DNA of 64,000 nt from assembly GCA_965242925.1 (NCBI GenBank), contig CBDEUM010000014.1:1-64000 (forward strand), given 5' to 3'. The translations under genes and the position numbers were made by a program. The DNA comes from Roseibacillus sp. (GTDB lineage Bacteria > Verrucomicrobiota > Verrucomicrobiia > Verrucomicrobiales > Akkermansiaceae). Positions 37,478 to 60,764 of this stretch are shown in pieces. Within the stretch, counting starts at the first letter, position 1. Each line of letters begins with the position of its first letter. The notes beneath the pieces are model-generated. The model was not told the origin of the DNA and did not search any database. It saw only the letters and a list, made by a program, of their open reading frames with translations.

Positions 37478-40311
<2,834 letters not shown>

Positions 40312-41006: not shown

Positions 41007-41192
41007 TCATGATTGGATCGTGGAAAGATAAGAGCTAAATTGTGCGCTGCCTGACGGCTCGCTGACACACAGGTAAAAGATCGAGTATTAAAGGTTGCCT
41101 TCGCTTTCGCTCCAGCGGTGCCGACCAACAGGTTCATCCCATTGGCGACGGCATCGACCTACGCCCCCGGTTGAATTGGGGGCATTACTCCG

Positions 41193-42737
<1,545 letters not shown>

Positions 42738-43097: not shown

Positions 43098-43393
43098 GGG
43101 GCCACCGCGAGTTAGTCAATTTCCCTTGTATTTAAAGCTCAACCCGAGCCGCCACCTTCCTGCAACGCGGGTTCGACTATCCTGCACTGCATTTCAGCTC
43201 CGCGTCCATCTCCAGCTTCACTACCAATCCGCCCCCCTCCCGGTTGCTCGCCCCAATGCACCCTCCCAATCCTTCCCCCCACGTCTTCGCGATCGCTGGT
43301 CCCAGCCCCCGGACCCGGCAACACGATAGGATTCCCCAAATACGTCGCGGGGGAAATTGAACAGAGCCCCGCAACATTGTAGTGTTTGGCCGA

Positions 43394-46300
43394 ATGGAGG
43401 GGCACACAGGACACGATTCCCCGGTACACGGCTCCTTTGCAGCGCCGGATTGTCCCACGCTCAATGCGCTTCTACCGGCCTTCCTGTTCCACGAACTGAT
43501 CGGCTGCGGGGACAGGGGAGCCGTCTACCGCGCCCAACAGATTTCCCTCAGCCGGGACGTCGCCATCAAGGTGCTCCCTCCCGAACTCTCCGCTATCGAA
43601 TCCTTCGCCCGGAGTTTCAAGGTGGAAGCCCGCGCCATGGCCAAACTCATCCACCCCAACCTGATCGGGATCTACGACTTCGGAGAGGTGGCCGGCATGC
43701 TCTACCTCGTGATGGAGTTCATCGACGGCAACGTCCTCCATCGCTCCACCAAGGGCAGGAAAGTCGAACCTGTCCAAGCCGCCGAGATCGTGGAGGGAGT
43801 GGCCCGCGGACTCGGGGAAGCCCACCAGCACGCCCTCCTCCACCGCGACATCAAGCCGGCCAGCATCCTGGTCACCCGCAAACTCAAACCAGTTCTGGGT
43901 GACTTCGGACTGGCCGGGCGGGCCGACGACATGGGCCCCGGCATGAAAACGGGAACCCCCGGCTACGTGGCCCCCGAAGTCCTGCACGATTCCGCATCTG
44001 CCAGCCCTGCTTCCGACGTCTACTCGTTGGGCATCATCCTGCACGAACTGGTGACCGGTGTCGCGCCTTCCCTGGAAACGCCTGCCGACCTCTCCCTTGT
44101 TCCCGACCTCCGCGGATTGCCTGAACTCGTGGGCCGGACCCTCGCACCTGATCCCCTCGAACGACCCGCAGACGGGAAGGCCTTTGCCCACGAACTGGAG
44201 ACCTGGCTGGAGGCCGCCCGCCAGACCCGCGTTCCCCTTCTCACCCCCGTCACCCCGGGGCGGCCGTCTTCCTCCATCCTCAAAGCTCCTGCAATCCCCT
44301 CCTCCAGGTCCCGCCAGGGTCTCTCACCTCTCCTCCTTGCGCTGGTGGGGTTGATCATCGTGGCTGCGGTTGTCTTCGCGCTCACCGGAGGCAAGGGACG
44401 CACTGACCTGACACACAATGAAGCCGGCAACCCAGGAGCAAGTGGTTCATCCCGCAACCTCGCTCCCCCCGCGCCCGTCCCGGATGTTTCCACTCCCCAT
44501 CCCTCCTTCCACCTGAGAGCCCACAAGTCCGAGATGCGCAATTCCCTCATCAGCGCCGCAAACGATCTGGTGGTGGCCCGACAGCGCAACGTGGTTGGGT
44601 TCCAGCAGGAGGTGGTCGGCAAGGAACAGGCCTGGCAACCTTACCTCTCCCTCATTGATCACGGGCTCGGCCTGCTGCCCCGCTATCTTTCTCCGGAAAC
44701 GAAGATCGCCCTGGATGCCACCATGGTGGATCTCCTCAACCGCTACGCCTTCGACCACCAGAGACAACTCGAATACCAGCATGCCAACAAGGTGAAGCAA
44801 CTTCACCAGGAGAGTGTCGATACCCTGCGCCGGGAAAACGCCCTTCCGGGAAACAGGCTCTTCGAAAGCGAGATCCACTGGATCGAATGGCTGGGTGCCA
44901 GTCCCTTCAAGCTCCTGGCCCGTCCTCCCGATGAAGAGTGGGTCCTGCGCTTCGGACCCGCCGACGCCCGGGCCGTTCATCTATTCTTTGAAGGAGGTTC
45001 AACCGTCCGGCTACTCGACGGCGAAGAGCAGGCAAAGGGAACCTTCTCCACCACCGAGGACGGTGAATTGCACATCGTCCGCCCGGGGGATTCGGGAAGT
45101 TTGACCCTTCGCTGGCGCGAGCCGTGGCTCGAGGGACGGAACCAGAAGGGACAGAAGGTGCGCTTCCGGCGGCGAAACTTCACCTTTGAGGTGAAGGGGC
45201 AGAGCAACCCCCGGAACACCGCCCACCCCGACCCGCAGGATTCGCCCCGCCGCCCTGCCCCCACCGAGCCTGTCCCCAGGGATCCCCAACTGGCCCGCCT
45301 CCAGCAACAATATCGCAAAACCCTCCAAACCCGGCTGGCTACCTGGTTCAGCTCTTATGACAAACGCATCGGGCAGCTCCTTGAGCAGGCCGGGAAAGGC
45401 TCCGACAACCCCACGGTCAAACATCTCGGAGAGGAACGGGAACGCATCGCTGCACTCGAGTGGCAGCGCGGCTACCTCGCCCCCCACGCCATTATCAGCA
45501 GCAGCTTCGTGCCTCCCGAACTGAGGAGCCCAAAGACCCAGTTGCAGGCCGAGGTCGTCTCCACCCTGATCGAGATGCAGGAGACCTATCGCACCTTCCT
45601 CCTGAAACTCCAGCGCAGCCGTCTCAATGCCAATGCCAATACCGATGAAATCGACAGGGAACTGGGACCCTTCCTGACCCTTCGAAAGATCGACCTCGAA
45701 GACGTCTACAACGCCCAACCGGACAGCAGGACCTGGATCGGGAGCACTGCCAGCCAGATCGCTCCTGCCTTTACCGGCTACCGCTCGCTCCGCGGGATGA
45801 AATACGATATCGGCGGGATCCTGCAGCTCAACTCCGGCATTTACCCCGAGTCCAATTCCCGCCTCAGGGGCAAGGACATGAATGCCTACTATGGCCGGAA
45901 GTGGCCCACCGCCGTGAACGACATTCCGGTCTACCAGAAGGCCGGAGCGCTCTATCTTGTGGGAGGGTTGATCTGGAGTTACTGGGAAGAGACCGGGACC
46001 AAGGTGGCCCAGGTCACCCTCAACTATCTCGACGGAAGCAGTTCCAAGCCCTTCCCCCTGCTCTACCGTCACCATATCGCCGACTGGTATTCCTCACGGG
46101 ATATCCCCGGAGCCGACCGCATCTGGCGGGGCAAGCGGCGCGATAGCGGAAACCACCCGGCCATCTACGAGATCGAGATCCCCAATCCCCAGCCAAAGAA
46201 AGCCATCAAGTCGATCGGTATCGAGTCAGGACACCGCGCCGCCGGGCCATTCGTGCTGGGTATCACGCTGGGGGAGACCTTTCTAACCGGAGAAGGTACC

Positions 46301-46447
46301 CGGGCAACCACGCCCGGCACACCGGGAGAATCGCCCATGCAGCAGGCTGACCGGAAACTTGAGGAGCGTATTGAAAGAGAGAAGGGGGAGAGGGACCGCA
46401 GACAGCGGGAGGAGGCCAGACGCAGACGCGAGGGACTGGGGAAGTAA
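43394..46447 (+). CDS. Membrane Hanks-type Ser/Thr kinase-like protein with a large extracytoplasmic region
   Basis: VAIK, HRDIKPAS, DFG, GTPGYVAPE, SDVYSLG; one TM helix. Confidence 0.85.
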   Translation: MEGHTGHDSPVHGSFAAPDCPTLNALLPAFLFHELIGCGDRGAVYRAQQISLSRDVAIKVLPPELSAIESFARSFKVEARAMAKLIHPNLIGIYDFGEVAGMLYLVMEFIDGNVLHRSTKGRKVEPVQAAEIVEGVARGLGEAHQHALLHRDIKPASILVTRKLKPVLGDFGLAGRADDMGPGMKTGTPGYVAPEVLHDSASASPASDVYSLGIILHELVTGVAPSLETPADLSLVPDLRGLPELVGRTLAPDPLERPADGKAFAHELETWLEAARQTRVPLLTPVTPGRPSSSILKAPAIPSSRSRQGLSPLLLALVGLIIVAAVVFALTGGKGRTDLTHNEAGNPGASGSSRNLAPPAPVPDVSTPHPSFHLRAHKSEMRNSLISAANDLVVARQRNVVGFQQEVVGKEQAWQPYLSLIDHGLGLLPRYLSPETKIALDATMVDLLNRYAFDHQRQLEYQHANKVKQLHQESVDTLRRENALPGNRLFESEIHWIEWLGASPFKLLARPPDEEWVLRFGPADARAVHLFFEGGSTVRLLDGEEQAKGTFSTTEDGELHIVRPGDSGSLTLRWREPWLEGRNQKGQKVRFRRRNFTFEVKGQSNPRNTAHPDPQDSPRRPAPTEPVPRDPQLARLQQQYRKTLQTRLATWFSSYDKRIGQLLEQAGKGSDNPTVKHLGEERERIAALEWQRGYLAPHAIISSSFVPPELRSPKTQLQAEVVSTLIEMQETYRTFLLKLQRSRLNANANTDEIDRELGPFLTLRKIDLEDVYNAQPDSRTWIGSTASQIAPAFTGYRSLRGMKYDIGGILQLNSGIYPESNSRLRGKDMNAYYGRKWPTAVNDIPVYQKAGALYLVGGLIWSYWEETGTKVAQVTLNYLDGSSSKPFPLLYRHHIADWYSSRDIPGADRIWRGKRRDSGNHPAIYEIEIPNPQPKKAIKSIGIESGHRAAGPFVLGITLGETFLTGEGTRATTPGTPGESPMQQADRKLEERIEREKGERDRRQREEARRRREGLGK

Positions 46448-46578
46448 GGGGTCGCCGGCCCCGGAAGCACCCGCCTGTCACCTGTCTGTCAAAATAGAAC
46501 CGGCTCCCGCAATCAGCACCGGGACCAGCTCGTATTCGCATTGCCAACCACCCCCCCGCCCCCTATCACAGCCCCACC

Positions 46579-47232
46579 ATGAAACTGCTCAGCACTCTCG
46601 CCTTCATGCTCACGCTGTCAGGCCTTGCCCTGGCCGACCATCACAAGTCCAAGGACAAGGACGGATTCTACGAACTCTTCAACGGCAAGAACCTCGATGG
46701 CTGGACCATCAACGAATCGCCCGCCTCCTGGAAGGTGGACGATGGCAAGATCATCGTGAAGGGACCCCGCTCCCACCTCTTCTACAGTGGCAAGGTGAAC
46801 AAGGCCAATTTCAGGAACTTTGAGGCCAGGCTCCAGGTCCTCACCAAGAAGGGCGCCAATGCCGGTTTCTACTTCCACACCAAGTTCCAGAAGAACGGCT
46901 GGCCCAAGAAGGGCTACGAGGCCCAGATCAACGCCACCCAGGGAGACCCCAAGAAGACGGGCAGCCTCTACGGTGTACGCAATGTCATGAACACTGCTCC
47001 CCACAAGGACGAGGAGTGGTTCGACTACCACATCACCGTGAAGGGCAAGAGCATCACCATGAAGGTCAACGGCAAGACCACGGTGGAGTACACCGAACCG
47101 AAAGATGGCCCGACCAAGGCGGAGCGCGGTGGCTTCGACCGCTTCCTCGACAGCGGCACCTTCGCCATCCAGTGCCACGACCCCGGCAGCGAGGTTCATA
47201 TCCGGAGTGTCAAGGTCAAGCCCCTCGACTAG
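46579..47232 (+). CDS. DUF1080 protein
   Basis: LFNGKNLDGW, ANAGFYFH, GTFAIQCHDP; signal peptide. Confidence 0.9.
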   Translation: MKLLSTLAFMLTLSGLALADHHKSKDKDGFYELFNGKNLDGWTINESPASWKVDDGKIIVKGPRSHLFYSGKVNKANFRNFEARLQVLTKKGANAGFYFHTKFQKNGWPKKGYEAQINATQGDPKKTGSLYGVRNVMNTAPHKDEEWFDYHITVKGKSITMKVNGKTTVEYTEPKDGPTKAERGGFDRFLDSGTFAIQCHDPGSEVHIRSVKVKPLD

Positions 47233-47294
47233 CTGTGGCCGGACCTTCCCAAGTCGGAATCTGAAGGCCGCATCAGTTGAACATCATTCTCTGG

Positions 47295-47330
47295 AACGCT
47301 CCCCGGTCATGCGCCCGGGAGCGTTTCTTG
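47295..47330 (+). terminator. Probable intrinsic terminator
   Basis: AACGCTCCC...GGGAGCGTT hairpin followed by TCTTGT. Confidence 0.5.
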
Positions 47331-47533
47331 TCTACGCGACTACCCTTCCCGGAGAACGCCATTCCGCCCGCCAGAGACTGAAGCCCTCAAATCACAAGCT
47401 TCCATCCACCCCCCTTCCCTCCCTTTTCGACAATCCCGTGATCGATTTTCGGCCATGGAACCCGTAATCTGGCGCAAGCGTACGGAGCCCAGCCACAGAA
47501 GGCGGATCTCTTGCACCCCCCACTTTGACCCCG

Positions 47534-50098
47534 ATGCCAGATCAACACAGGGCAGCCGATGACGCCTCCGGGACTCCGAAACCGAAGGAGCTCAATGCCC
47601 TCCTGCCTGCTTACGAGGTCAAACAACTAGTGGCCCGTGGCAGCATGGGAGCAGTCTACCTCGCCCGGCAGAAATCCCTCGACCGTGATATTGCACTCAA
47701 GATCCTCCCCAGGAAGTTCGGCCGCGACCCGGCTTTCCGTGCCAGTTTCGAGGAGGAGGCCAGAACCATGGCCAGACTACGCCACCCGAACCTGATCGGG
47801 GTGCACGACTTCGGCGAAATCAAAGGCTACCTCTACCTCATCATGGACTTCGTGGACGGGAAGTCCCTTCGCAACTCGGCGCGCGGCCGGGCGATCGCAC
47901 AGAAAACCGCCGCCCAGGTAGTGTTATCCATCTGCGAAGGACTTGCCCAGGCACATAAGGCCGGCATCGCTCATCGCAACCTCAAACCCTCGAACATCCT
48001 GATCGGCTCCAACCGGAAACCACGGATTGGTGATTTCGGACTGGTCGGACATTCCAACGAGACGGAGGACTGCGTCTCCCCGCAATATTCCAGCCCGGAG
48101 GCAATGCAGAATCCTCCCAAGGCCAACGAACGATCCGATGTCTACTCCGTGGGCGTGATCCTCTACGAGTTGCTGACCGGAGAACTCCCCGGCGAGAACT
48201 ACGCTCCTCCCTCCCGGACCAAGGACCAGAAGGTAGACGCCCGGTTCGACAAGATCGTGCGTCGGGCCATGCACCCCGCTCCCGGCATGCGCTTTGCCAA
48301 CGCCGGGGCGATGGCCAGGGAGCTCGAACCCCTCGTCGATCATCTGGACGACGAGGACGGCAGCAGCCTGCTGAGTAGCAGGAGCAACGAACCCGCAGCC
48401 GAGTTGCAGACTTCCGACGAAGTGGAGGAATCGCACGGACGGGCGGTCCAGCAAAATGAGACTCTCGCGGCGATGGCGGCCACCGAGTCCAGACGTTACG
48501 ACCGCCTGATCGCATCCAAGATCCTGATAATCGCCATCCTCCTGATGGCCCTCCTCTACGTTTGGTCCGCCTACAACCGGAGAAAAGAAGACTCGGAACG
48601 CCGGGCCGACATGGCTGAAAAACTGAAGGGTGCAAATGACTCGAAAGGCCGGAAGAACCCCTGGGCCGACCTCACGAACACGCCGCTCACGAACAAGCCG
48701 CAACAGCCCGCACCCCCGCAACCGCGCGCATGGACCCTCCCCAATCTCCAGGACCGGCTCCTTCGCGGGGAACGGAGCCGGTTCCCCGAAGGCACCTGGG
48801 ACCTGGCCACCCGCAAGGTCTATTTCGTGGGGTCAGCCATGAGCTGGGGCGACGCCAGCAAGTTCGCGGAAGCCCACGGCGCTCATCTCGCCACCATCCG
48901 CAACGAGGAAGAGCGCATCGCCCTGGTCGCCCGGCTCCCCGAGGGGAAGACCACCTGGCTGGGAGGAGGGATGACCGGGGCCAAAACCTGGGGATGGGTG
49001 GATGGAACCACCTCTCCCCTGAGTAAGCCCACCGAGGCGACCGGCCGCTACCTCAACATGAGCGGAGGTGGAACAATTCGGGCCCTCCCCGGAAAGGCCA
49101 AGCATCCCTTTTTCCTCCAGTGGCATCTGGACGGCAGGAACCCGGGATCCTTCAATGCTCAGCTCCAGCGCTTCAACTTGTCGATTGACCAGCGGCTGCC
49201 GGCCTTCCCCCCGGGCACGGTCACGAGTGGAGAACGACATTACCTCGTCCTCGAGCGAAAGCTGGGATGGGAAAAGGCCCGGGACCTGGCCAGGGAAGCC
49301 AATGGGCACCTGGCCATTCCGGGAAACCAGGCCGAGCACGACTACCTCAAGCGCGTACTCAGCACCTGCCTGCAGGAAAATATGGCCGCCTGGATCGGGG
49401 GCTACTATAAAGGCGATTCGTGGCAGTGGGTCACCAAGGAACCCTGGTCCTTCACCGCCTGGTCCCCACCCCCTGCCCGTGGTCTTGATCCCGGGGCCAC
49501 CTCGCTCTGCTTCACGGCCGGGGAGGCCGCCGGCTGGGATAATGTGGCCCCCACGGTTGAACTCCCTGCTCTCGTCATCGAGTGGAGCAAGGACCAGTTC
49601 GCAGCGGAAACTCCTCCCCCCGGGAAGTCCGAATCCTGGACCAAGCTGCGCAACCAGTGCACGGTCAATCTCACCAGCAAGCGGGAAAGGTTCCTGAAAC
49701 TTCTCAAGAGCAACGGCACCGCCATGAACACAGCCCTCGAGAACTGGTACAATGCCCTCGCTCTCCAGGATCGAGGACGCCACTCCATCGCGTTCCAGCA
49801 GGCCCGGGCAAAGGTCGCACAGGATGGACGCATCAACGAAGAAGGCCGGTTCCCGCCCCTTCCCTCCGAAATCGCCTCGGTGTGCAATGCCCACCTGCGT
49901 GAGCAGCGCGAACTTGATCGGGAATACGCCGATGTGCTGGAAACCGCTCGCAAGACCTACGTGCAAAAGCTGGGAGTCCTCCTGACGGAGGCCCAGCGCG
50001 AACGCCGCTTCGCCGGGGTTATTGAGATTGAAAATGAACTGGACGCGGTGGATGACACCCAGTCCTTCGCAATCCACTTCAAGGTCGCCGGGACGTAG
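47534..50098 (+). CDS. Membrane Ser/Thr (pseudo)kinase with two C-type lectin-like domains
   Basis: IALK, HRNLKPSN, DFG, YSSPE; TM helix; W..A...A...G.HLA.I...E...W(L/I)GG...W.W(V) twice. Confidence 0.85.
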   Translation: MPDQHRAADDASGTPKPKELNALLPAYEVKQLVARGSMGAVYLARQKSLDRDIALKILPRKFGRDPAFRASFEEEARTMARLRHPNLIGVHDFGEIKGYLYLIMDFVDGKSLRNSARGRAIAQKTAAQVVLSICEGLAQAHKAGIAHRNLKPSNILIGSNRKPRIGDFGLVGHSNETEDCVSPQYSSPEAMQNPPKANERSDVYSVGVILYELLTGELPGENYAPPSRTKDQKVDARFDKIVRRAMHPAPGMRFANAGAMARELEPLVDHLDDEDGSSLLSSRSNEPAAELQTSDEVEESHGRAVQQNETLAAMAATESRRYDRLIASKILIIAILLMALLYVWSAYNRRKEDSERRADMAEKLKGANDSKGRKNPWADLTNTPLTNKPQQPAPPQPRAWTLPNLQDRLLRGERSRFPEGTWDLATRKVYFVGSAMSWGDASKFAEAHGAHLATIRNEEERIALVARLPEGKTTWLGGGMTGAKTWGWVDGTTSPLSKPTEATGRYLNMSGGGTIRALPGKAKHPFFLQWHLDGRNPGSFNAQLQRFNLSIDQRLPAFPPGTVTSGERHYLVLERKLGWEKARDLAREANGHLAIPGNQAEHDYLKRVLSTCLQENMAAWIGGYYKGDSWQWVTKEPWSFTAWSPPPARGLDPGATSLCFTAGEAAGWDNVAPTVELPALVIEWSKDQFAAETPPPGKSESWTKLRNQCTVNLTSKRERFLKLLKSNGTAMNTALENWYNALALQDRGRHSIAFQQARAKVAQDGRINEEGRFPPLPSEIASVCNAHLREQRELDREYADVLETARKTYVQKLGVLLTEAQRERRFAGVIEIENELDAVDDTQSFAIHFKVAGT

Positions 50099-50229
50099 CA
50101 GGTGAACCACCCGATGACCCCTATTAATTTAATCGCCACCTGCTTCCCATGATATGCCCATCGGTTAATCGTCCGCGTCGACCCTCATGCTGTAAGGTCT
50201 CATTTCTCCGAATCCTCCAAAACCATCCC

Positions 50230-51678
50230 ATGAAAACACTCCTCCTGCCCGCTCTCCTCGCCTTGGCTTCCCTCTGTGTCCAGGCCGATCCGCTCATCTC
50301 CTCTTGGTACACCGAGGAGTCCGGAAGCTACGCCCGGATCTACCGCAACCTGGTCGACGAAAGTGCCGGGGATGCGGTCACCACTTGGAGCCGGGGCCAG
50401 GGCAACCAGACCCAGCCCACCTACGGCGGGGTCCACAGGATCGAATCCTCTTCCGACTGGATCTACATCCACACCACCGGACTGGCTTCCAGCCACGTGA
50501 TGGGACCCTGGTATGGAGACGAAGCCAAGACCCTGCCTTTCCCGAATTTTCCATCCAATCAAGCCGTCATCTACCGTATCCCGAGGGACCCGGCCATCCC
50601 CGCTAACCTTACGGCCACATCACTCGGGGCCGTTGGATACTTCGTGGACGGGGTGGCCCAGTTCGACGGTCAGGACGGCTTTTCCTATGGCAGCTTCAGG
50701 GGCGAGGACGCCTCCCCCGGCAGTGGTTACTGGAACCACGATGCCTACGTCAGCGAGGGAGTGACCTTCGACAATGCCTTGGCACACCAAGCTGGGGGCA
50801 ATCACCACTATCATGTCAATCCCCCGGCCCTCCGTCATGCCCTCGGGGACAGTGTGGATCACGACATCGCCACAAATACCTACGCTGAAAACTTCAACGG
50901 TCGGCACTCTCCCATCATCGGCTGGGTCGCCGATGGCTACCCGATTTACGGACCCTACGGTTACTCTGATTCCGAGGACCCTTCCAGTCCCATCCGCCGC
51001 ATGATTTCCGGTTATCAACTGCGAACCGACCTTGCCAGCGGCGCAGCACGAGCCAGTTATCCTGCCTGGGCCGAGCGGTTCCACGGTGTTGGCCCCGCTC
51101 TCTCCGGCAGTCAACTCGGTCCCAACGTCAACGCCGAAATCGACGGGGAGACCTATTCCCTCGGTCGCTACCTGGAGGACCACGACTACAAGGGCGACCT
51201 CGACATGACGCTCGGGGAAGATTTCGATCTCAACGAACAGAACGGCCGCTTCTGTGTGACCCCGGAGTTTCCCGGGGGCACCTGGGCCTACTTCACCTGT
51301 ATCGATCCCGATGGCAACCCGGTCTTTCCCTACAACATCGGTCCTCAGTTCATTGGATCCCCCACCGGGGGAACCGTGAATGCCGTCACGGAAAGCACCA
51401 CCGTCCACTTCCTGGGCGGACCCAACATGGAAGACACGATTGATGCCGTCCGTCACAGCCCCGATTCAGATGAGATCATCCTCACCTGGTCCACGGTTGA
51501 AGGCGGCACCTACCAGGTCGAGTCTTCTGCCGACCTCCAGGCATGGGTCGAAGAAGGCGCGGCGTTCAGCATGGATGCCAATCAGGTGACCGTGACCGAT
51601 GCCCGAGATCCCGGAGGAAGCTTCTTCTATCGCCTCGTCCGCAAAAGCATCGCGGACTATGACGACACCGGATTCTGA
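50230..51678 (+). CDS. YHYH-family secreted protein 1
   Basis: GYFVDGV, AHQAGGNHHYH, HSPIIGWVADGYPIYGPYG, DL.E.NGRFCVTPEFP.GTWAYF. Confidence 0.85.
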   Translation: MKTLLLPALLALASLCVQADPLISSWYTEESGSYARIYRNLVDESAGDAVTTWSRGQGNQTQPTYGGVHRIESSSDWIYIHTTGLASSHVMGPWYGDEAKTLPFPNFPSNQAVIYRIPRDPAIPANLTATSLGAVGYFVDGVAQFDGQDGFSYGSFRGEDASPGSGYWNHDAYVSEGVTFDNALAHQAGGNHHYHVNPPALRHALGDSVDHDIATNTYAENFNGRHSPIIGWVADGYPIYGPYGYSDSEDPSSPIRRMISGYQLRTDLASGAARASYPAWAERFHGVGPALSGSQLGPNVNAEIDGETYSLGRYLEDHDYKGDLDMTLGEDFDLNEQNGRFCVTPEFPGGTWAYFTCIDPDGNPVFPYNIGPQFIGSPTGGTVNAVTESTTVHFLGGPNMEDTIDAVRHSPDSDEIILTWSTVEGGTYQVESSADLQAWVEEGAAFSMDANQVTVTDARDPGGSFFYRLVRKSIADYDDTGF

Positions 51679-51999
51679 GACTGCAGGACAGGCCTCCCGG
51701 CGGGAACAAGCAAGTGATTCGCAACTGTCGGGATCTGCTCCATACTCTCGTTCCTCCTGGGCGTTATCCTAACAGAATCGGGTTACTCCCCACCTCTACT
51801 TCCTCCGTTGGAAATTCTTCGAATTGGAAGGTGCCCTGTGCGAAGGGTAATGCGTCTCGCCGGGTTTTCAGGGATGTTGCCTGCACCTGCTAAGGCTCGA
51901 TTTCGACAGCACCTCAATAATGTTAAGCTGGTGTAAAAAAGGTTCCAAAAAAACCGTGAGTGAGTAGGTGATTCCATGCGCTCGGAAACCCCCGGATCC

Positions 52000-53760
52000 A
52001 TGCCTGCTCCGTCCCCCTGCCTGATGCCCCTGCTTGCCGCATTGTGTTTACCGGCTGCTGCGGAGCCTCAATTGACTTCCTGGTACACCGCGCAGAGTGG
52101 AAAATACGCCCGTATCTTCACCAGTAAGGAAAACGAGGCGGCAGGCATCACCTCGACCACCTGGAACCGGGGTCAGGGTACGCAGGCCTCCCCGACCTAC
52201 TCAGGGGTGCACGAGATCCACCATGACGCCACCTGGGTCTACATCAGGACCAGCGGGCTGGGTTTCCACCCCATGGGGCCCTGGTACCTTAATGAAGCCA
52301 AGACCCGAAACTTCCCGAACTTCCCCGCAAACACTGCCACGACCTACCGCATCCCGCGCACCCCGACCTCCTTCAACGGCACCATTACCACCGGCTTCGG
52401 CTCGATTGGCTACTTCGTCGATGGTGTGGCGCTCTTTGACGCCACCGACACCTTCTCCTACATCAACAGCAGCAGCAGTGATGCAAGCCCCGCGGGAGGC
52501 GGGCGAGGGGATGGCGTCTGGAACCGCGATGCCTACGTCAACGAGGGGGTGACATTCGATTCCGCCAATGCTCACCAGGCGGGGAGCCTGCACCATTATC
52601 ACGCTAATGCTCCTGCCATCCGGCACCTGCTTGGTGACAGTGTTGACTACGAGGCCGGCGCTAATGCCTATACCGAGAACTTCAACGGCGGGCACTCGCC
52701 GATTCTGGGCTGGGTGTCGGACGGGCACCCGATCTACGGTCCCTACGGCTACGGCGATCCCAATGACCCTGGTTCTCCTGTGCGGCTCATGACCAGCGGC
52801 TACCAGAAGCGCGACGGCAGCAACGGCTCCACCTCCCTGAATCGGACCGGGCGGACCAGTCTTCCACTATGGGCCAACCGGTTACAGGGACGCACCACCG
52901 TCCTTGCCTCCAACCGCTACGGCCCCAATGTCAGCACCGCCTACGTTCTCGGCCACTACCTTGAGGACTACGCCTACATGGGGGATCTTGGCCTCAGCCA
53001 GGGCCCCCACTTTGACCTCGACGAATACAACGGACGCTTCTGTGTCACCCCGGAGTTCCCTGAGGGAATCTGGGCCTACTTCACGACCATCGATATGGAT
53101 GGCACCCCGGTCTTCCCCTACAACATCGGGCGCAACTTTTACGGCACCCCCAGCGGCGGCAACACCAACACTATTCCCGCCGGGTCCACCAGGGCCTTTA
53201 TCGGTGGGCCGAGCAAGCAGCACCGCGCAAGCGATGCCACCAGGGAAGACGGGGTGCTGACCCTCACCTGGTCCACGGTTGAAGGTGGCGCCTACCAGCT
53301 CGAGTCTTCTCCCAATCTCGGAACGTGGACCGAGGAAGGTGCGGACTTCACGGCACAATCAATCACGCAAACCACCAGTGACACGCCAAGTCCCGCCACT
53401 GAACCAACCCAATTCTATCGTCTCAAGCGCACCGGCATCGCCACCTATGACGATTCCGGCTTCGACAACCAGTTCGAAGGCACTGGCGGAAATAATGGCG
53501 GCGGGGGCGGGGGCGGCGCGGACAACTTCGTCGCCAACTTCACCGGACCTCCCCTTCCTCCGGCCAACGTCATCCAGGAACTGCGAATCGGTAATCCCGG
53601 TATTCCGGCCACCCTCGTCAGCCTCGACTCAAGAACCCAACTCACCGTCTCGTTTGACGCCAGCGCCCTCCCTCCCGGAAGCCATGCCGTCTACGTCATT
53701 TTCACTCCCCCGGGACGTCCCCTGCTCACCCTTACTTCCACCAACCGCTTCTCCCCCTGA
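52000..53760 (+). CDS. YHYH-family secreted protein 2 with a Gly linker and a C-terminal Ig/IPT-like domain
   Basis: Paralog of the upstream gene (AHQAGSLHHYH, HSPILGWVSDGHPIYGPYG); start uncertain (51976, 52000 or 52024). Confidence 0.85.
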   Translation: MPAPSPCLMPLLAALCLPAAAEPQLTSWYTAQSGKYARIFTSKENEAAGITSTTWNRGQGTQASPTYSGVHEIHHDATWVYIRTSGLGFHPMGPWYLNEAKTRNFPNFPANTATTYRIPRTPTSFNGTITTGFGSIGYFVDGVALFDATDTFSYINSSSSDASPAGGGRGDGVWNRDAYVNEGVTFDSANAHQAGSLHHYHANAPAIRHLLGDSVDYEAGANAYTENFNGGHSPILGWVSDGHPIYGPYGYGDPNDPGSPVRLMTSGYQKRDGSNGSTSLNRTGRTSLPLWANRLQGRTTVLASNRYGPNVSTAYVLGHYLEDYAYMGDLGLSQGPHFDLDEYNGRFCVTPEFPEGIWAYFTTIDMDGTPVFPYNIGRNFYGTPSGGNTNTIPAGSTRAFIGGPSKQHRASDATREDGVLTLTWSTVEGGAYQLESSPNLGTWTEEGADFTAQSITQTTSDTPSPATEPTQFYRLKRTGIATYDDSGFDNQFEGTGGNNGGGGGGGADNFVANFTGPPLPPANVIQELRIGNPGIPATLVSLDSRTQLTVSFDASALPPGSHAVYVIFTPPGRPLLTLTSTNRFSP

Positions 53761-53846
53761 GGGGACACCTTGCCATTGCCTAAAGACGAAGTCTGCTTCC
53801 CTGTTGGCAGGGACCGACGCCCCAGCTATCCTCCGGACTAGGATCC

Positions 53847-55598
53847 ATGACCGCGCGCCTTCTCTGGCTCTCTAGCCTCCTCACCGTCGGCTCGCATCTG
53901 CAGGCTGGCGTCTCCCTTGAGTTCAGGCACCTCTGGGAGGGCAAACCCTTCACTATTCCCAGCGGGCCTTTCATCACCAGGTCCGGGGAGACCATCGAAC
54001 TTTCACGCCTCGCCTACCTTCTCTCCGAACCCCGCCTCCTCAGCCGCGGGAACAATACCTCCTCCGGGACCTGGCTGCGCCGCCACGACTGGTTCGCCTA
54101 TATCGATGGTTCCAGCCCGGGCGGTGTCAGTCGTCTCGATCTGGGTGACCTTCCCCGCCGGACCTACACCGTTTTGCAGTTTCATATCGGACTTGACCAG
54201 GAAACTGACGAGACCGATCCCAGCCAATACCCGGCAGATCATCCCCTCAACCCCAACCTCAACAATCTCCATTGGACTCCCCAGGGAGGTTACATCTTCC
54301 TCGCCATGGAAGGTCACCTTCGCAAGAACGGGGATACCGGCGGCTTCGCCTATCACCTGGGCAATGCCTGGAACCGGACTCCTGTCTCGCTGCCCCTCTT
54401 GCTCGAAATCACCGGTCCTGTCACCATTGCCATCGATATCCACCTCGATCGTCTTTTCAACGGCGCCGAACCCCTCCAGATCGCTGCCAATCCTTCCACT
54501 CACTCGCGCAAGGGCGACGAGATCGCGCAACTGCTGAAGAGCCGGATTCCTTCCGCCTTCTCGGTCCGTGAAATCCGGCAGGCGCGTCCGCCTGCCCCGG
54601 CGGATCCCCCCGCTCCCGGAAACCTGGTCGGCACGCCCTATCGTTTCCGGCTGGCCCGGGGCTTTCCCATTCCAGAGTTGCCCACCGACCCCCCGCTCAC
54701 CAACGAGGGCGTCGCCCTGGGCAAACGCCTCTTTCACGACCCCCTGCTTTCCGTCACCACCAAACAGTCCTGCTCCTCCTGCCACCAGATCGCTCACGCC
54801 CTTTCCGATTCACGCCGCTTCAGCGAGGGCGCAAGCGGATCACTGGGAACACGCAACGCCATGCCCCTCTTCAACCTCGCCTGGAAAGACTCGTTTTTCT
54901 GGGATGGCCGTGCCCCCTCGCTGCGGGTCCAGGCCCTGCAACCGATCCAGAATCCAATCGAGATGCACGAATCTCTTCCCAATGCCATCGCCAAGCTGAA
55001 AACCGCCAATTACGGCCCCCTCTTTCAGGCGGCCTTCGGCACGGCCGGCATCACGGAGGAGCGCCTCGGGATCGCCCTTGAACAATTCCTGCTGACCAAA
55101 ACATCCTACCGCTCCCGCTTCGATCAGGCTGCCAGGGGTGAGGGTGAACTGACGGACCAGGAGAAACGCGGATTCGAATTGTTCATGACGGAATACGATC
55201 CCCGCCGCGGTCTCAAGGGAGCCGATTGCTTCCACTGCCACGGCGGCGCTTTCTTCACCGATCACCGCTTCCACAACAATGGACTCCGGGATGATGAAGA
55301 TCGTGGACTGGAATCGGTGACCGGCAGGCCCACCGACCGCAATCGCTTCATCACGCCCTCTCTCCGCAACATCGCCCTCACTGCCCCCTACATGCACGAC
55401 GGCCGCTTCCAGACTCTGGAAGCGGTCATCAATCACTACAACTCGGGACTCCACCGCAGTTCGACCCTCGATCCCAACCTGGCCAAGCATCCCCCGGAGG
55501 GGCTTGGTCTGGGCAGGGAAGACAGAACCGCCCTCGTCGCATTTCTCAAAACGCTCACCGATCCCCAGTTCCTGCCGACGGCAAAAACGGGGAATTAG
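53847..55598 (+). CDS. MbnP-like domain fused to an MbnH/MauG-type di-heme cytochrome c peroxidase-family enzyme
   Basis: N-terminal L.Y..S..L, F.IG, HWT.QGGYIFLAMEG, YHLG (MbnP-like); CSSCH and CFHCH; FWDGRA; TPSLRNIALTAPYMHDG; VINHY. Confidence 0.82.
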   Translation: MTARLLWLSSLLTVGSHLQAGVSLEFRHLWEGKPFTIPSGPFITRSGETIELSRLAYLLSEPRLLSRGNNTSSGTWLRRHDWFAYIDGSSPGGVSRLDLGDLPRRTYTVLQFHIGLDQETDETDPSQYPADHPLNPNLNNLHWTPQGGYIFLAMEGHLRKNGDTGGFAYHLGNAWNRTPVSLPLLLEITGPVTIAIDIHLDRLFNGAEPLQIAANPSTHSRKGDEIAQLLKSRIPSAFSVREIRQARPPAPADPPAPGNLVGTPYRFRLARGFPIPELPTDPPLTNEGVALGKRLFHDPLLSVTTKQSCSSCHQIAHALSDSRRFSEGASGSLGTRNAMPLFNLAWKDSFFWDGRAPSLRVQALQPIQNPIEMHESLPNAIAKLKTANYGPLFQAAFGTAGITEERLGIALEQFLLTKTSYRSRFDQAARGEGELTDQEKRGFELFMTEYDPRRGLKGADCFHCHGGAFFTDHRFHNNGLRDDEDRGLESVTGRPTDRNRFITPSLRNIALTAPYMHDGRFQTLEAVINHYNSGLHRSSTLDPNLAKHPPEGLGLGREDRTALVAFLKTLTDPQFLPTAKTGN

Positions 55599-55717
55599 CA
55601 CTGCGCCCCCGGACGATGACCCGCTCCGCGCAGGGTTCGGTGCAAAGGCTGCCCTCCGCCACTCCCGGTCCTGAACTTCATGCAAAGTGTTGGACTCCTC
55701 GGGATCTTCGACCCACA

Positions 55718-56314
55718 GTGAGCCCGTTGAACCTGCCCAACTCGCTCACTGTCTCCCGCCTCGTTCTCACGGCCATCTTCGTGATCGGTTTCATACTGGG
55801 TAGCTGGGGTCCCATCGGCTACGGCATCGCCCTGGTGGCCTTCATCGTGGCTGCCGTCACTGATTTCCTGGACGGTTACTTCGCGCGCAAACTCAACCTC
55901 GTCACCTCCCTCGGCAAACTCCTGGACCCCATCGCCGACAAGGTCCTCACCGCCTCAGCCTTCATTTTCCTCTGCGACCACGAAAAAATACCCTGTCCGG
56001 CCTGGGTCGTCGTCATCATCCTCGCCCGCGAGTTCCTGGTGACCGGCCTGCGCCAGATTGCAGTCGAAAAGGGACAGGTTATCGCCGCGGACTGGAGCGG
56101 CAAATGGAAGACCGGATTCCAGATCGGATTCTGTATCACCGCCCTGGTCTGGCTTTTCCTGGAGTCCCTTGGACAGCAGGAATTCTTCCTCGCCCGACTG
56201 GCCCATCCCGACTCCTTTCTCATGCCCTCCTTCCTCTGGCTCTCCCTCGCCCTTACCATCATCTCCGGTCTCCACTACGTCCGGAACGGACGGGACCTCC
56301 TGCGGGACCATTGA
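55718..56314 (+). CDS. pgsA: CDP-diacylglycerol--glycerol-3-phosphate 3-phosphatidyltransferase
   Basis: NLPNSLTVSR, TDFLDGYFAR...GKLLDPIADK, REFLVTGLR, GKWKT; start GTG 55718 or TTG 55727. Confidence 0.9.
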   Translation: MSPLNLPNSLTVSRLVLTAIFVIGFILGSWGPIGYGIALVAFIVAAVTDFLDGYFARKLNLVTSLGKLLDPIADKVLTASAFIFLCDHEKIPCPAWVVVIILAREFLVTGLRQIAVEKGQVIAADWSGKWKTGFQIGFCITALVWLFLESLGQQEFFLARLAHPDSFLMPSFLWLSLALTIISGLHYVRNGRDLLRDH

Positions 56315-56564
56315 ACCAGGGCCCCGGAAGGACTTCATGCCCACAGGCATCAACGAAAAATACCGGTGGAACGGGGCCTGCAAGGTGGTTCTTTCCAACT
56401 GTCCCCGGCGGAGCCGGGACCTCCTGATGGAACGCCTTCCGGACAACCATTGTCCTCGGAAGAATCTGAATTCGTGGGCCTGAGACTCTCTAGGAAAATG
56501 AATCCTTTTCTCCTGATTATCCGGATTGCCAAATAAAACAGAGGTAGGTAGCATTCCCAGCGTT

Positions 56565-57326
56565 ATGAAACGATATGCCTTGATCAAGCCCGCCGTCCTT
56601 GCTGGTTCGGCCCTCTTCGCGGGATTCGCCCTTGCCGGTGAGCCTGCTCCCAAAGCGGCTATTACCCCTGCTCCTTCGTCGGACCTCGAAGTCAGTTTCG
56701 GGGTGGGATATACCTCTGAGGATGTCTGGCGAGGCAACAATAGAGGAGATGACCTCTTCGATGCCAGTATCGGAGTGTCCGGAAGCGGATCCTTGGGTGG
56801 TCTCGGAGACCTCGATCTGTCTGCTGGCCTTCATCTCCTCACCAGAAGCAATGGGACGCGATCTGCCACATCAGGCGCCCAGGAACTGCGTATCAACATG
56901 GAAGCCTCCAAATCGCTGGGCTGCTTTGACCTCGCGGTCGGGGTCACCAACTACTCCGGGTTCGGGGATTGGAGCGGCAGGGAGGACCTCCTTGAGCCCT
57001 ATGTCGCTCTCATTACCAAATTGGCCGGCTTGAACGTCGGTATCGGCGTCTACGATGATCACAACGACGTGACCGGCAGTGATGATCCCTACATCGAAAT
57101 CACTGCAAGCAGGTCCGTGGCCCTTGGTGGTCTCGGACTCAGCGTAGAAGGCGTTGTTGGCACTTGGAACGAATTCGATGATACCCACTACGGCCTCTCG
57201 ATTTGTCGGCCCATTGCCGCTTCCGACAGCATCACCGTCACTCCCCATGTCTCGGCGATCTTCGGGGATACTTCCTCTGGTGATGACGAGTTCACCGCGG
57301 GCGTGAATCTCGGCTTTGGATTTTAA
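56565..57326 (+). CDS. Outer-membrane beta-barrel (TorF/Gcw_chp-like), copy 1
   Basis: Signal peptide; GYTSEDVWRG; alternating beta strands; C-terminal Phe. Confidence 0.7.
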   Translation: MKRYALIKPAVLAGSALFAGFALAGEPAPKAAITPAPSSDLEVSFGVGYTSEDVWRGNNRGDDLFDASIGVSGSGSLGGLGDLDLSAGLHLLTRSNGTRSATSGAQELRINMEASKSLGCFDLAVGVTNYSGFGDWSGREDLLEPYVALITKLAGLNVGIGVYDDHNDVTGSDDPYIEITASRSVALGGLGLSVEGVVGTWNEFDDTHYGLSICRPIAASDSITVTPHVSAIFGDTSSGDDEFTAGVNLGFGF

Positions 57327-57358
57327 GGGCTCTGGAATCGTAGGATCTTCTAACCTTC

Positions 57359-57385
57359 AGGGGGAGCCACTAGGCTCCCCCTTTT
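57359..57385 (+). terminator. Intrinsic terminator
   Basis: AGGGGGAGCC-ACTA-GGCTCCCCCT-TTT. Confidence 0.85.
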
Positions 57386-57555
57386 CGTGTTTATCAGCCC
57401 CAGATCCGTTTTTTTGACCCTTCCCTCCGGTCTCACCGGGGAATTATTGACTCTTAAAAATGGGGCGAAACCTCGATCCTGTCCTCTTATGAGGTGATCT
57501 CACGTGATTCTGCAGGTTGTAAAAGGGCTCAGAAAACGGTAAAGGGCTCCCCGTC

Positions 57556-58281
57556 ATGAAACTAAACGTGTTCATCAAGCCTGCCGTCCTTGCTGGATCG
57601 GCACTCTTCGCAGGATTCGCCCTTGCTGGCGATCCCTCCTCCAAAGCAGCTATTGCCGCTGCTTCTTCGTCAAACCTCGCGGTCAATTTCGGCGCAGGTT
57701 ATTCGTCCGATTATGTCTTTCGCGGAAACAACAACGGAGCTGACCTCTTTGACGCCAGCATCGGTGTTTCCGGCAGCGGGGACAATTTCGACTGGGCGGC
57801 TGGCCTCTGGCTCGCTTCCTATGAGGGTGGCAATGAGTTGGACATCCATATGTCGGCGTCCAAGTCACTCAGCGACAATCTGGATCTGACGCTTGGAGTC
57901 ACCAACTACTCCTACTTCGGGGGTGCTGCCGGCGGTGACGACCTTGAGCCCTATGTTTCCCTGGGTACCTCTGTGGGAGGGATCTGCCTGGGTGTTGCGG
58001 CATACTACAACGAGAGCGGCGCAGCCGCTGCCCACGACATCTACTGGGAGCTCACCGCTGGTCTGGTAGAAATGGACCTTGGTGGCAATATGACGCTCGG
58101 TATCTCGGGTGTGCTCGGTCACTTCGATGATGGTCCGGTTGATACCTTCTACGGTATTAGTGCCGGCCTGAGCATCGCCGCTTCGGACAGCATCACCGTT
58201 ACTCCTCACATCACGCACACCATTGATGGTGAGAGCGGCGACGAGACCGTCACCGGCGTGAGTGTTAATTTCGCATTCTAG
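57556..58281 (+). CDS. Outer-membrane beta-barrel (TorF/Gcw_chp-like), copy 2
   Basis: GYSSDYVFRG signature; C-terminal VNFAF. Confidence 0.75.
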   Translation: MKLNVFIKPAVLAGSALFAGFALAGDPSSKAAIAAASSSNLAVNFGAGYSSDYVFRGNNNGADLFDASIGVSGSGDNFDWAAGLWLASYEGGNELDIHMSASKSLSDNLDLTLGVTNYSYFGGAAGGDDLEPYVSLGTSVGGICLGVAAYYNESGAAAAHDIYWELTAGLVEMDLGGNMTLGISGVLGHFDDGPVDTFYGISAGLSIAASDSITVTPHITHTIDGESGDETVTGVSVNFAF

Positions 58282-58315
58282 TCTGAGCGAGACGACTCAA
58301 TTTTGATATACCGGG

Positions 58316-58342
58316 AAGGGGAGCCGTCAGGCTCCCCTTTTT
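58316..58342 (+). terminator. Intrinsic terminator
   Basis: AAGGGGAGCC-GTCA-GGCTCCCCTT-TTT. Confidence 0.85.
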
Positions 58343-58376
58343 GCGTCCCTTGTTCCACCTTACCCTGTTCCTCCTC

Positions 58377-59370
58377 ATGGGGACTCGCTGGAAGCAGCAA
58401 ACAACCCTTCCTGCCCGCATCGAAGTCCTCTCCCTCACTTTTCACGAGTCCAAGATCGTATCGCGCAGCGACCCCGTACTCGGCTGGCGGGTCACCCCCT
58501 ACGCCTACTTCCTCCTCAAGTGCAGGGGCCCCGAAGTGGACAGCATCCCTCCGCTCTCCATCGATCTCGATTTCCTCGACACCTCCGGCTATGTGGTCCT
58601 GCCCATTTCCACCTCTGCCCTTCCCATCGATGCCTCCAAGCCATCCCAGGCGCGACCCGTGCGCGACTTGAAGGTTGCCCTCACTCTCGATGAACGGACC
58701 GCGGAAGAGGAGGATAGCCTCCACCTCGATGTGAAAGCTTCGGGTCACGGGCTCATTCCACCCTTGGAAGTTCTGCTCGATCTCCCGCCCGCCGGCTTCA
58801 CAATTGCCGACACCGAAGACCGCGAACTTCTCATCGAGGAACTCGATGCCGAAACCGATGACGGTGCGCCCCTCTCAACCCACGAGTGGCGCGTCAAGCT
58901 CGTTCCGGAAGGAGACCGCGCCCCCAAGGAGTTTACCTTTCCCTCCGTGCAGGTCGAGACCGCGGGGGAAGAGGGACTGACCCTGCAACGCTACGAGGAT
59001 GTCGACCTCGTTTCCGTTCCCGCCACCGTCACCCTCGGCGCCAGGATGGGCCTTGGCTTCACCGTGGCTCCTCCTCCTTATCATTCCAGCCCTGGCCCTC
59101 CTCTCCTTCGTCCTCCGGTTGGTTCTGCGCCGCAGCGGACCGTCTCCGGTCCCCTACACCGGGCCAGACGTCCCCTCCACCCTCACCCCAGTCACACTCC
59201 TCGCCTTCCTTAAGCGGCTCCGCGCCTACGAGGGACTAAGCAAGGATCGACGTAGAGCTCTCGAATCCGAGATCACCCTCCTGCAAGACCGCTTCTTCGG
59301 ACCCGGACAGGAGAGCGCGGCCACCACCGATCTCCACGAAATCGCCCTCAAGTGGAAGCCCGCCGCTTAG
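58377..59370 (+). pseudogene. 5'-truncated, frameshifted remnant of a larger membrane-anchored hypothetical protein
   Basis: Protein-like frame to about 59040 (EVLSLTFH...TPYAYFLLK...DLDFLDTSGYVVLP); the TM helix and tail (PWLLLLIIPALALL...TPVTLLAFLKRL) continue in the +1 frame to 59370. Confidence 0.6.
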
Positions 59371-59390
59371 ACTGGTTGCCGGCCAGCGGT

Positions 59391-60764
59391 CTAACTTGAG
59401 GCTTCCGGTTTCGGCTCCAGGATGCCCTTCTCTCCTTCGCTCTTCGCGATCACCACCGCTGCGCAGGAATCGCCAAGCACATTGACTGCGGTACGGCTCA
59501 TGTCGAGCAGGCGATCGACAGCGAGCAGGGTCATGATCGCGATCTCCGCTCCCGGGATCCCGGAGTTCAGGAGAATGATGAAGATCGCCACCAGGCTGGC
59601 CGAAGGAATTCCCGCCACCCCGATACTGGTGAGCAGAGCCGCCAGCACCACGATGAATTGCTGCCCGAAGCCCATCTCAATGTTCATTACCTGTGCCACG
59701 AAGATGACCGCCACGCACTCATAGAGCGCAGTGCCGTTCATGTTGACCGTCGCGCCAAGCGGAAGGGTGAAGCTGGCGATCTTCTTGGAAACACCGGCAT
59801 TGTCCTGAACACAGCGCATGGTCACCGGCAGAGTAGCGGAAGAGGAGGCTGTGGAAAAAGCGGTCAGAAGGGCGGTCCGCATGGCCCTGAAGTGCGCCAG
59901 CGGGCTGACCTTTCCCACGTAGCGCAGGATGAGTGGCATGATCACCACAAAGTGAATGAGGAGGGATGTCAGCACCGTGAAGAAGTACTTGCCAAGAACC
60001 AAGAAGATCTCGCCGCCCGACTTGTAAACCACGGGAAGTAACAGCGCGTACACCCCGATCGGAGCGAGCGCCATGATCCAACGCGTCAGCAGGATCATGA
60101 CATCATTCAGCGATTGAAAGAACTCCCGCATGGTCCCCATGCTGTCCACGGGCAATCGCGTGATGGCCACCGCAAAGAGAATGCTGAAGAAGATCAGCCC
60201 TAACATCGCACGGTTGTCCGAGGCCGCCTTCATCACATTGGCGGGAATCATCCCCTTGACGAAATTGGCCATCAGCTTGAAGAATCCGCCCGATCCGGGC
60301 CCGATGCCTTCGGCCTCGGCCTTTGCTGCCGCGACCTTCTCCTTGTCGGTCTCCGAAGCACCCTCGAATTGATCCTTGAATGCTTTCTCGATGGTCTCAT
60401 TCGGCTCGCCGTCAGTGAGTCCCGGCTTGATGAGATTGACCATGGACAGCCCCACCAGAATCGCGAAGAGGCCGGTGAACGCGTAGAAGCCGGCTGTCTT
60501 CCCGAGCATGCGCCCAAATCCCTCCATCCCGTGCAGGCTCGCAATACCCGCCACTACCGAGGAGACAATCAGGGGCACGATGATCATCTTCAACAGGTTC
60601 ATGAAGACGTCCTTGCCGAGGAATTCAAAGGTCTTCACCGCACCTGAGACGAATCCCGAAGCCCCCGACCCGTTCCCATTATCGATACTACGAAACAGGA
60701 AGGCAGTCAGCGTCGCCAGGACCAGCGCCGCGAGGATTTGCCAGTGCGGCTTGATCTTCGTCAT
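59391..60764 (-). CDS. Dicarboxylate/amino acid:cation symporter (DAACS, GltP/GltPh family)
   Basis: [46 protein letters not shown]. Confidence 0.93.

Follow-up and report, generated by a model that had tools for sequence, protein, structure and literature searches.

A conserved pairing of long-form YHYH proteins with a fused MbnP-MbnH-type di-haem protein in Roseibacillus sp. and its relatives: a candidate extracytoplasmic, possibly copper-centred cassette

The stretch of DNA analyzed here, hereafter the window, comprises 64,000 nucleotides of Roseibacillus sp. (contig CBDEUM010000014.1, assembly GCA_965242925.1). At positions 50230-55598 of its + strand it carries a cassette of three genes, which encode two proteins of the YHYH family (YHYH-A and YHYH-B) and a single-chain protein that joins an MbnP-like domain to a di-haem domain of the MauG/MbnH type. 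The table of open reading frames (ORFs) and a translation check bear out the co-orientation and the coordinates given in the original prediction, which had been made from the letters alone. YHYH-A has two start options (50149 or 50230, ending at 51678) and is 482 amino acids (aa) long from 50230; YHYH-B (51976-53760) has 594 aa, and the fusion protein (53847-55598) has 583 aa in one chain. The intergenic gaps are 297 nt between YHYH-A and YHYH-B and 86 nt between YHYH-B and the fusion gene, and an unrelated gene, pgsA, starts 17 nt 3' of the latter. All three proteins begin with hydrophobic leaders with A-x-A-like ends, which by inspection are putative export signals. The whole genome (4.58 Mb) contains two YHYH matches and one MbnP match, and because these sole matches all lie within 5.4 kb, their clustering is not a matter of chance. 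Among the 42 window ORFs scanned, there was no TonB-dependent receptor or methanobactin gene, as had been noted for the immediate surroundings of the cassette, and no two-component sensor pair or sulfatase.

Both YHYH proteins belong to PF14240, with scores of 122.7 bits for YHYH-A and 118.1 bits for YHYH-B against a Pfam cut-off of 25, and they are 56% identical on alignment. Their translations contain AHQAGGNHHYH and RHSP (YHYH-A) and AHQAGSLHHYH at aa 199 and HSPILGW (YHYH-B), in agreement with the earlier description of two His-rich paralogs with an AHQAG..HHYH...HSP signature. YHYH-A (50230-51678, +) is of a long form, with a YHYH core at aa ~20-385 followed by a C-terminal beta-sandwich-like domain, and YHYH-B (51976-53760, +) is a paralog with an added Gly-rich linker and a further C-terminal domain. 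Four histidines, whose codon positions on the + strand of YHYH-A were verified, are invariant in 25 long-form sequences, namely His186 (50785-50787), His193 (50806-50808), His195 (50812-50814) and His226 (50905-50907), together with several acidic and aromatic residues. Asp181 and Asp235 are likewise invariant in these 25 sequences, and the AH...[HY]HYH motif is conserved; the motif and such acidic residues have been proposed to form a metal site. Long and short canonical YHYH proteins have this motif in common, as well as GW..DG.PIYGP and GRF..TPEFPGGT. Compared to the canonical form, however, the long form adds an N-terminal extension (with Trp26 and Trp53) and two inserts, one with His226 and the other with Trp280, whereas the short canonical matches (181-258 bits across ~590 nt) have neither the two inserts nor the extension.

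A C-terminal motif, TY.VE.S.DL..W ... FYR, is common to YHYH proteins (aa ~395-482 of YHYH-A) and to a protein with PATR repeats at another locus (L020:4634-8014), and the region possibly serves both as a shared domain for sorting or attachment, although profile comparison gives a low probability. This PATR-repeat protein, which stands in the place of YHYH at L020, was considered as a YHYH relative and rejected, since profile comparison found no YHYH domain in it.

An AlphaFold2 model of YHYH-A aa 20-400, built on a 74-sequence alignment, reached a predicted local distance difference test (pLDDT) score of 96.6 and a predicted template modelling (pTM) score of 0.94; an earlier model from a shallow alignment (pLDDT 55.5) was discarded. 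A Foldseek search of the PDB with the model gave no match at E ≤ 0.001, a second-look fold comparison gave 0 of 279, and a PDB sequence search with YHYH-A returned noise only (E 1.8). VIA-align against 48,161 chains gave none at Z >= 2, an unusual zero that is perhaps partly due to the method. By contrast with these searches of solved structures, the model matched 13 predicted viral YHYH structures at E ≤ 0.001, and an ESM Atlas search returned YHYH clusters only. Judging from the model, the YHYH fold appears to have no solved structural relative. The family is large, with 3144 cluster representatives at E ≤ 0.001 in a profile search, and its members are found in bacteria and diatoms as well as in giant viruses and the tails of phages. 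The statements on its function that were found in print are two predictions (PMC7824862; preprint 10.64898/2026.10.18.759936). The YHYH protein of phage tails was predicted to be a Zn-dependent hydrolase with a Zn site of three His and one Asp (PMC7824862), and a 3-His metal site was predicted in the preprint, which calls the family uncharacterised (10.64898/2026.10.18.759936).

The N-terminal part of the fusion protein (aa 21-219; 53907-54503, +) is a cysteine-free MbnP-like domain that scores 86.7 bits against the broad Pfam family PF20243 (cut-off 27), and the expected match of the N-terminal domain to MbnP was in this sense found. Invariant residues in this domain of the fused family are His132, His142-Trp143, Tyr149, Glu155, His170, His219 and Asp224, with the codon of Trp143 at 54273-54275 (+). 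At the WxW position, the window domain reads W-T-P (in H-W-T-P), with Pro145 in place of the second Trp. The first 300 aa of the fusion contain no Cys and hence no four-Cys motif, and the number of Cys before the first haem motif is zero in 76 of 120 homologs and one in 40 of 120. A profile of eight MbnP-like domains had a single, weak match in the PDB, namely MbnP chain 7l6g_A (E 2.2), which is named 'four-Cys motif protein' there and in which AWNWQAG lies opposite LHWsWqgGY. A Pro-rich interdomain linker (54558-54641, +; ~aa 238-265), poorly conserved and with variable alignment columns, follows, and the same polypeptide continues into the MbnH-type enzyme. The original statement that enzyme and substrate are fused therefore stands for the single chain, but needs qualification for the substrate, in which the strict MbnP model TIGR04052 is missed, the four Cys are absent and only the first Trp of WxW is kept.

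The MauG/MbnH-type di-haem domain (54705-55595, +) matches PF03150 (CCP_MauG) at aa 287-432 with 167.3 bits (cut-off 25.6), and the proposed joining of an MbnP-like domain to an enzyme with two CxxCH motifs is confirmed by CSSCH at aa 309 (54771-54785, +) and CFHCH at aa 461 (55227-55241, +). Two CxxCH motifs are kept in 119 of 120 homologs. All 30 PDB matches of the domain are di-haem peroxidases or MauG, the closest solved relative being 6e1c_A (E 9.2e-43 over aa 265-577; PDB name 'Di-heme enzyme'), which is presumably the MbnH of Methylosinus trichosporium. Tyr531 in VINHYN (55437-55439, +), the HY to which attention had been drawn at the outset, aligns with a Tyr of 6e1c and, counted on the alignment, with Tyr294 of the MauG chains, which we take to be the distal haem ligand of that enzyme. 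A Tyr is thus predicted by alignment to be the distal haem ligand in place of Met. In addition, Trp352 in FFWDGR (54900-54902, +) is invariant in the fusion alignment and aligns with a Trp of the top three structures (6e1c, 9qdt and 1iqc), in keeping with a Trp between the haems.

The fused form is not rare. In a search for fusion homologs, 8000 candidates were scored and 5453 proteins were found at E ≤ 1e-5; all of the best 120 of the 5453 carry both Pfam domains, and they are mostly from Verrucomicrobiota. Their database names include, e.g., 'MbnP family protein' and 'cytochrome c peroxidase'. The pairing with YHYH was counted in two genome samples, 301 genomes of the phylum and 401 genomes of the class. 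The phylum sample has MbnP in 10 genomes and YHYH in 18, and by their coordinates a YHYH gene lies within ~3 kb on the same contig in 9 of the 10 MbnP genomes. The class sample has MbnP in 51 genomes (61 matches) and YHYH in 97; 119 listed rows of YHYH were typed according to their score and span, 64 as long-form and 55 as short canonical matches, a typing that omits ~31 listed partial matches (mostly of model positions 2-112) and 39 further rows.

Among the matches listed, to which all counts of typed YHYH in the class sample refer here and below, long-form YHYH occurs in 51 of the 401 genomes, lies within 10 kb of MbnP in 41 of the 51 MbnP genomes and within 5 kb of 40 of the 61 MbnP matches, and is on the same strand in 37 of 41 pairs. 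Long-form YHYH and MbnP co-occur in 47 genomes, while each is found without the other in 4, compared to ~6.5 genomes expected from 51 x 51 / 401; we attach no probability to these counts because related genomes are not independent. The association is with the long form, of which 46 of 64 are near MbnP. Canonical short YHYH proteins, including those of phage tails and giant viruses, share the core motifs but are rarely found there (5 of 55).

A separate set of 80 loci from species genomes, collected with the fusion as query and scanned with purpose-built profiles, points in the same direction. The fused form is present in 28 of these loci, and 17 of the 28 have a long-form YHYH, which is upstream on the same strand in 16 (directly abutting in 15) and 8 kb downstream in one; at locus L036, a response-regulator gene lies between the upstream YHYH and the fusion. 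The 11 fused loci that are YHYH-less include 4 without upstream flank and 7 with at least 4 kb of it. By contrast, YHYH is absent from all 52 split or partial loci; these are mostly from Bacteroidota and encode MbnP separately, together with MbnH and one more gene of peroxidase-like type. The adjacency put forward in the original prediction is thus strongly conserved across the phylum, class and locus sets, and we consider it very probable that the partnership between the YHYH and MbnP-MbnH genes is real. No paper linking YHYH to MbnP or MbnH was found, with many subscription papers lying outside the full-text coverage of the search.

The neighbors and fusion partners in relatives were surveyed by Pfam scans of 30 YHYH-linked loci. 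YHYH is fused to a sulfatase in 8 of them, and a separate sulfatase is found alongside in at least 2 more. The sulfatase domains contain CSPTR or CSPMR in all 8 examined, and are by this motif real Cys-type sulfatases. In 10 loci the cassette adjoins an OmpR-type regulator, with or without a kinase. Other recurring neighbors are an EF-hand protein, in 3 loci, and a short canonical YHYH downstream in several. Two loci (L097 and L098) have the same YHYH-YHYH-fusion order as the window, plus a sensor pair; a radical SAM protein of ~390 aa also lies beside the sensor kinase there (L097:3197-4393, L098:3187-4350). Where sensor systems adjoin the cassette, a heavy-metal sensor kinase is the best NCBIfam match in 4 of the 7 scanned (249-284 bits; cut-off 292.6), and the regulators of those four score 215-230 bits (cut-off 279), with the heavy-metal type as top match in 3 of 4. 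Among 36 long representatives of long-form YHYH, 11 carry a sulfatase domain, 2 a multicopper-oxidase domain and 9 a tandem double YHYH, and the remaining ones have Ig, cadherin, FG-GAP or autotransporter repeats, and lectin-type domains too. The source organism is itself sulfatase-rich, with 118 sulfatase and 9 FGE-sulfatase profile matches in its 4.58 Mb.

Some fused loci that are YHYH-less have neighbors of their own. At L030, the neighbor is a protein of 2081 aa (L030:5917-12162) with glyoxal/galactose-oxidase-like, Kelch, legume-lectin and PKD domains, and also a partial CCP_MauG and a cytochrome c domain; a similar neighbor of ~2100 aa is likely, from weak profile matches only, at L031:11658-18188 and L038:8946-16079. 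At L026 and L041, a DUF1501/DUF1800 pair is found. In one locus of the window's own family (L094:3143-5485), a TonB-dependent receptor gene converges on the fused gene, the two being separated by the gene of a CBM96 protein, the sole such case among the loci scanned.

With regard to transcription, near-identical pieces of all three genes were found in contigs of 4 RNA-library runs from 3 studies at a depth of 2-7, for which DNA carry-over is possible, and the runs in which the stretch occurs come from seawater, marine or related metagenomes. None of these contigs spans the junction between YHYH and the fusion gene with 31 letters on each side. One contig joins 50120 to 51783 via 18 other letters, thereby omitting YHYH-A (30-letter side, likeness threshold 90), and may reflect a related strain with one YHYH gene or an artefact. 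No RNA element was found by an Rfam scan of 46000-60000, and a promoter and terminator scan was at chance level, with 2 promoter-like sites compared to 1.1 expected. One promoter-like site with 9/12 matches, at 53804-53832 (+), lies 15 nt 5' of the fusion start, within a site count that is at chance level.

The cassette can be compared with several known systems. Similar to the MbnP/MbnH pair of M. trichosporium OB3b (7L6G, 6E1C; TIGR04052, TIGR04039), it combines a MauG-like di-haem enzyme with a partner that carries a Trp and belongs to the MbnP fold family. MbnH converts Trp174 in the WxW motif of MbnP to kynurenine (Kyn174), which completes a copper site of His, Met and water (PMC11951088). 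However, the two components are here one fused chain, the MbnP-like part is Cys-free and keeps the first Trp only, and the scores against the strict models are low (24.9 against 140, and 216 against 363). Further, classical MbnPH loci include a TonB-dependent transporter (MbnT) and sigma/anti-sigma genes, whereas no TonB receptor match is present among the 42 window ORFs and the constant neighbor is the long-form YHYH instead. MauG with pre-methylamine dehydrogenase offers a second likeness, namely a Tyr-type di-haem enzyme (Tyr531 corresponding to MauG Tyr294) whose gene stands beside that of a candidate protein substrate. However, the score against the MauG model TIGR03791 is far below its cut-off (183.8 against 443.85 bits), methylamine dehydrogenase genes are absent, and the candidate substrates have other folds. 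A third likeness is to MopE/CorA with their di-haem partners; these are secreted or surface copper proteins with a site of His and kynurenine beside a di-haem peroxidase, a potential parallel if YHYH is the protein that is modified, although no relation to YHYH in sequence or fold was found. Both the copper proteins and their di-haem partners are named in PMC3621798 and PMC11951088.

The observations above establish which domains are present, their catalytic motifs, the conservation of the gene pairing and the partners to which YHYH is fused. Based on them, we tentatively hypothesize, at a probability of roughly 0.4, that the three genes form an extracytoplasmic cassette for metal handling or maturation, probably centred on copper, and that YHYH is either a client for metal or a second substrate of oxidation for the self-contained MbnP-MbnH unit. 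In this model, peroxide, or O2 together with electrons, would bring the di-haem domain to a high-valent bis-Fe(IV) state, and the domain would then oxidize the invariant Trp143, beside His142, in its own tethered MbnP-like domain. The oxidized Trp143, together with the invariant His132, His170 and His219, would create a copper site akin to the kynurenine site of MbnP. The unit would have the long-form YHYH pair as its clients, secreted enzymes built around four histidines, to which it would pass metal or on which it would make a second oxidative modification, and these clients may act on extracellular sulfated polymers. The latter is probable because YHYH clients are built into sulfatase- and multicopper-oxidase-bearing chains in relatives. 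We infer the oxidation of Trp, which metal is involved and in which direction transfer runs, and the lines of support are several: the adjacency that is unique in the genome, the class-wide pairing, the restriction of YHYH to fused loci in the locus set, and the MauG/MbnH hallmarks of the enzyme. The invariant His142-Trp143 and the three further His of the MbnP-like domain also argue for such a site, and the four invariant His of YHYH agree with published predictions of a 3-His metal site for the family (PMC7824862; preprint 10.64898/2026.10.18.759936). As to the metal, the multicopper-oxidase domain in 2 of the 36 YHYH representatives, the galactose-oxidase-like neighbor at L030 and the heavy-metal-type sensors (4 of 7) are hints of copper or of a metal more generally.

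Several observations weigh against the proposed copper cassette. The MbnP-like domain scores only 24.9 bits against the strict model TIGR04052 (MbnP_like_WxW; cut-off 140), and the di-haem domain 216.2 bits against the MbnH model TIGR04039 (cut-off 362.85), so that neither strict assignment is reached. The second Trp of WxW is replaced by Pro in ~43 of the 120 closest homologs, while WxW is present in ~75 of 120. The heavy-metal sensor scores are under the cut-off, 3 of the 7 sensor systems are CpxA/OmpR-like, and the window is without such a sensor. An adjoining YHYH is missing in 10 of the 51 MbnP genomes (among the matches listed) and in 7 of the 24 fused loci with usable upstream flank; therefore, the fused enzyme can work without YHYH. 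Finally, the published prediction for YHYH is a zinc hydrolase rather than a copper protein (PMC7824862).

Alternatively, YHYH might be the true protein substrate, with the di-haem enzyme oxidizing a conserved Trp, Tyr or His of YHYH at a distance and thus installing a protein-derived cofactor at the His centre, as MauG does with pre-methylamine dehydrogenase, while the MbnP-like domain docks the partner or donates metal. We regard this as rather unlikely, if worth serious attention. In its favor, only the long form is regularly paired with MbnP (46 of 64 near it compared to 5 of 55 short ones, among the matches listed), and this form has extra conserved elements, i.e., the insert with His226, the insert with Trp280 and the extension with Trp26 and Trp53. 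It would also fit the dispensability of the second WxW Trp in the MbnP-like domain, and MauG-type enzymes do act on separate proteins (PMC11951088). However, the invariance of His142-Trp143 in the tethered domain fits a substrate in cis, and the enzyme has no adjoining YHYH in the 10 of 51 genomes mentioned above. A different explanation, to which we give somewhat less credence again, is that there is no direct hand-over, i.e., that YHYH is a Zn-dependent hydrolase of envelope or glycan polymers, and the di-haem protein is a peroxidase or copper binder that merely shares its regulon or habitat island. The prediction of a hydrolase role and of a Zn site formed by one Asp and three His (PMC7824862) agrees with this, as do the fusions to sulfatase (11 of 36) and to Ig-, lectin- and cadherin-type domains, which are typical of glycan-degrading enzymes, the 118 sulfatase matches in the genome, and the unrelated pgsA 17 nt after the fusion gene, but the back-to-back order on the same strand is kept across many families of the class. 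Moreover, the co-occurrence in 47 genomes compared to ~6.5 expected (among the matches listed, the relatives not being independent) is above the usual level for a shared island, and the Tyr-ligated MauG type differs from the detoxifying type of peroxidase.

The association with Cys-type sulfatases raises a further idea, namely that, once a sulfatase is exported, its CSPxR Cys is converted to formylglycine by YHYH together with the di-haem oxidase, so that the system would serve periplasmic sulfatase maturation. Although YHYH is fused to or adjoins Cys-type sulfatases, with CSPTR or CSPMR in all 8 linked domains examined, this is very improbable, given that the YHYH proteins of the window have no sulfatase domain and the window has no sulfatase, that the genome has 9 FGE-sulfatase matches alongside its 118 sulfatases, and that the oxidase is constantly accompanied by YHYH rather than by a sulfatase, a domain that 25 of 36 long YHYH representatives lack. 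We therefore rank the copper cassette highest, followed by YHYH as the substrate, then by co-regulation alone, with sulfatase maturation last and unlikely.

The window has several other features. A complete rRNA operon lies at 37201-42736 (-), with 5S at 37201-37316, 23S at 37478-40310 and 16S at 41196-42736, and with two tRNAs at 40730-40803 and 40934-41006. Directly 5' of the cassette are two large Ser/Thr protein kinases (43382-46447 and 47525-50098, +), the second with two C-type lectin domains; they are conceivable regulators of the cassette, which here is without a two-component system. A pair of paralogous secreted proteins is encoded at 56526-57326 and 57556-58281 (+), the latter with a weak match to the TorF-family putative porin model (28.8 bits, under the cut-off of 47.15). 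The region 1972-12204 (+) encodes a pair of very large secreted proteins, 1305 and 2080 aa long, whose domains comprise Laminin_G_3, bacterial TSP3 repeats, lamin-tail domains and a CotH kinase-like domain.

The domains and the fused form were already known, whereas the YHYH pairing is not in print as far as the literature searches reach. What is new here includes the pairing counts, the split between long and short YHYH, the fusions to sulfatase and multicopper oxidase, the loss of the second Trp, and the absence of a solved relative of the fold. In a bolder and doubtful version of the hypothesis, the long-form YHYH proteins would make up a novel class of secreted metalloenzymes with a fold unlike any solved structure, whose copper and/or protein-derived-cofactor site is built by a single-chain MbnP-MbnH maturase and which acts oxidatively with sulfatases on marine sulfated polymers. 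If this were true, YHYH with its dedicated maturase would be a third MauG-type maturation system, and PF14240 as a whole, with its members in phages and eukaryotes, would gain a function for the first time. To our knowledge, the MbnH type is the only type of enzyme that makes kynurenine-copper sites, and the present cassette suggests that MbnP/MbnH-like chemistry may reach beyond copper uptake by methanotrophs into sulfatase-rich marine degraders of polysaccharides. For PF14240, a large orphan family without a solved structure or a tested function, the pairing gives the first functional lead, and because the partnership is lineage-wide, it makes the function of YHYH cheaply approachable by experiment.

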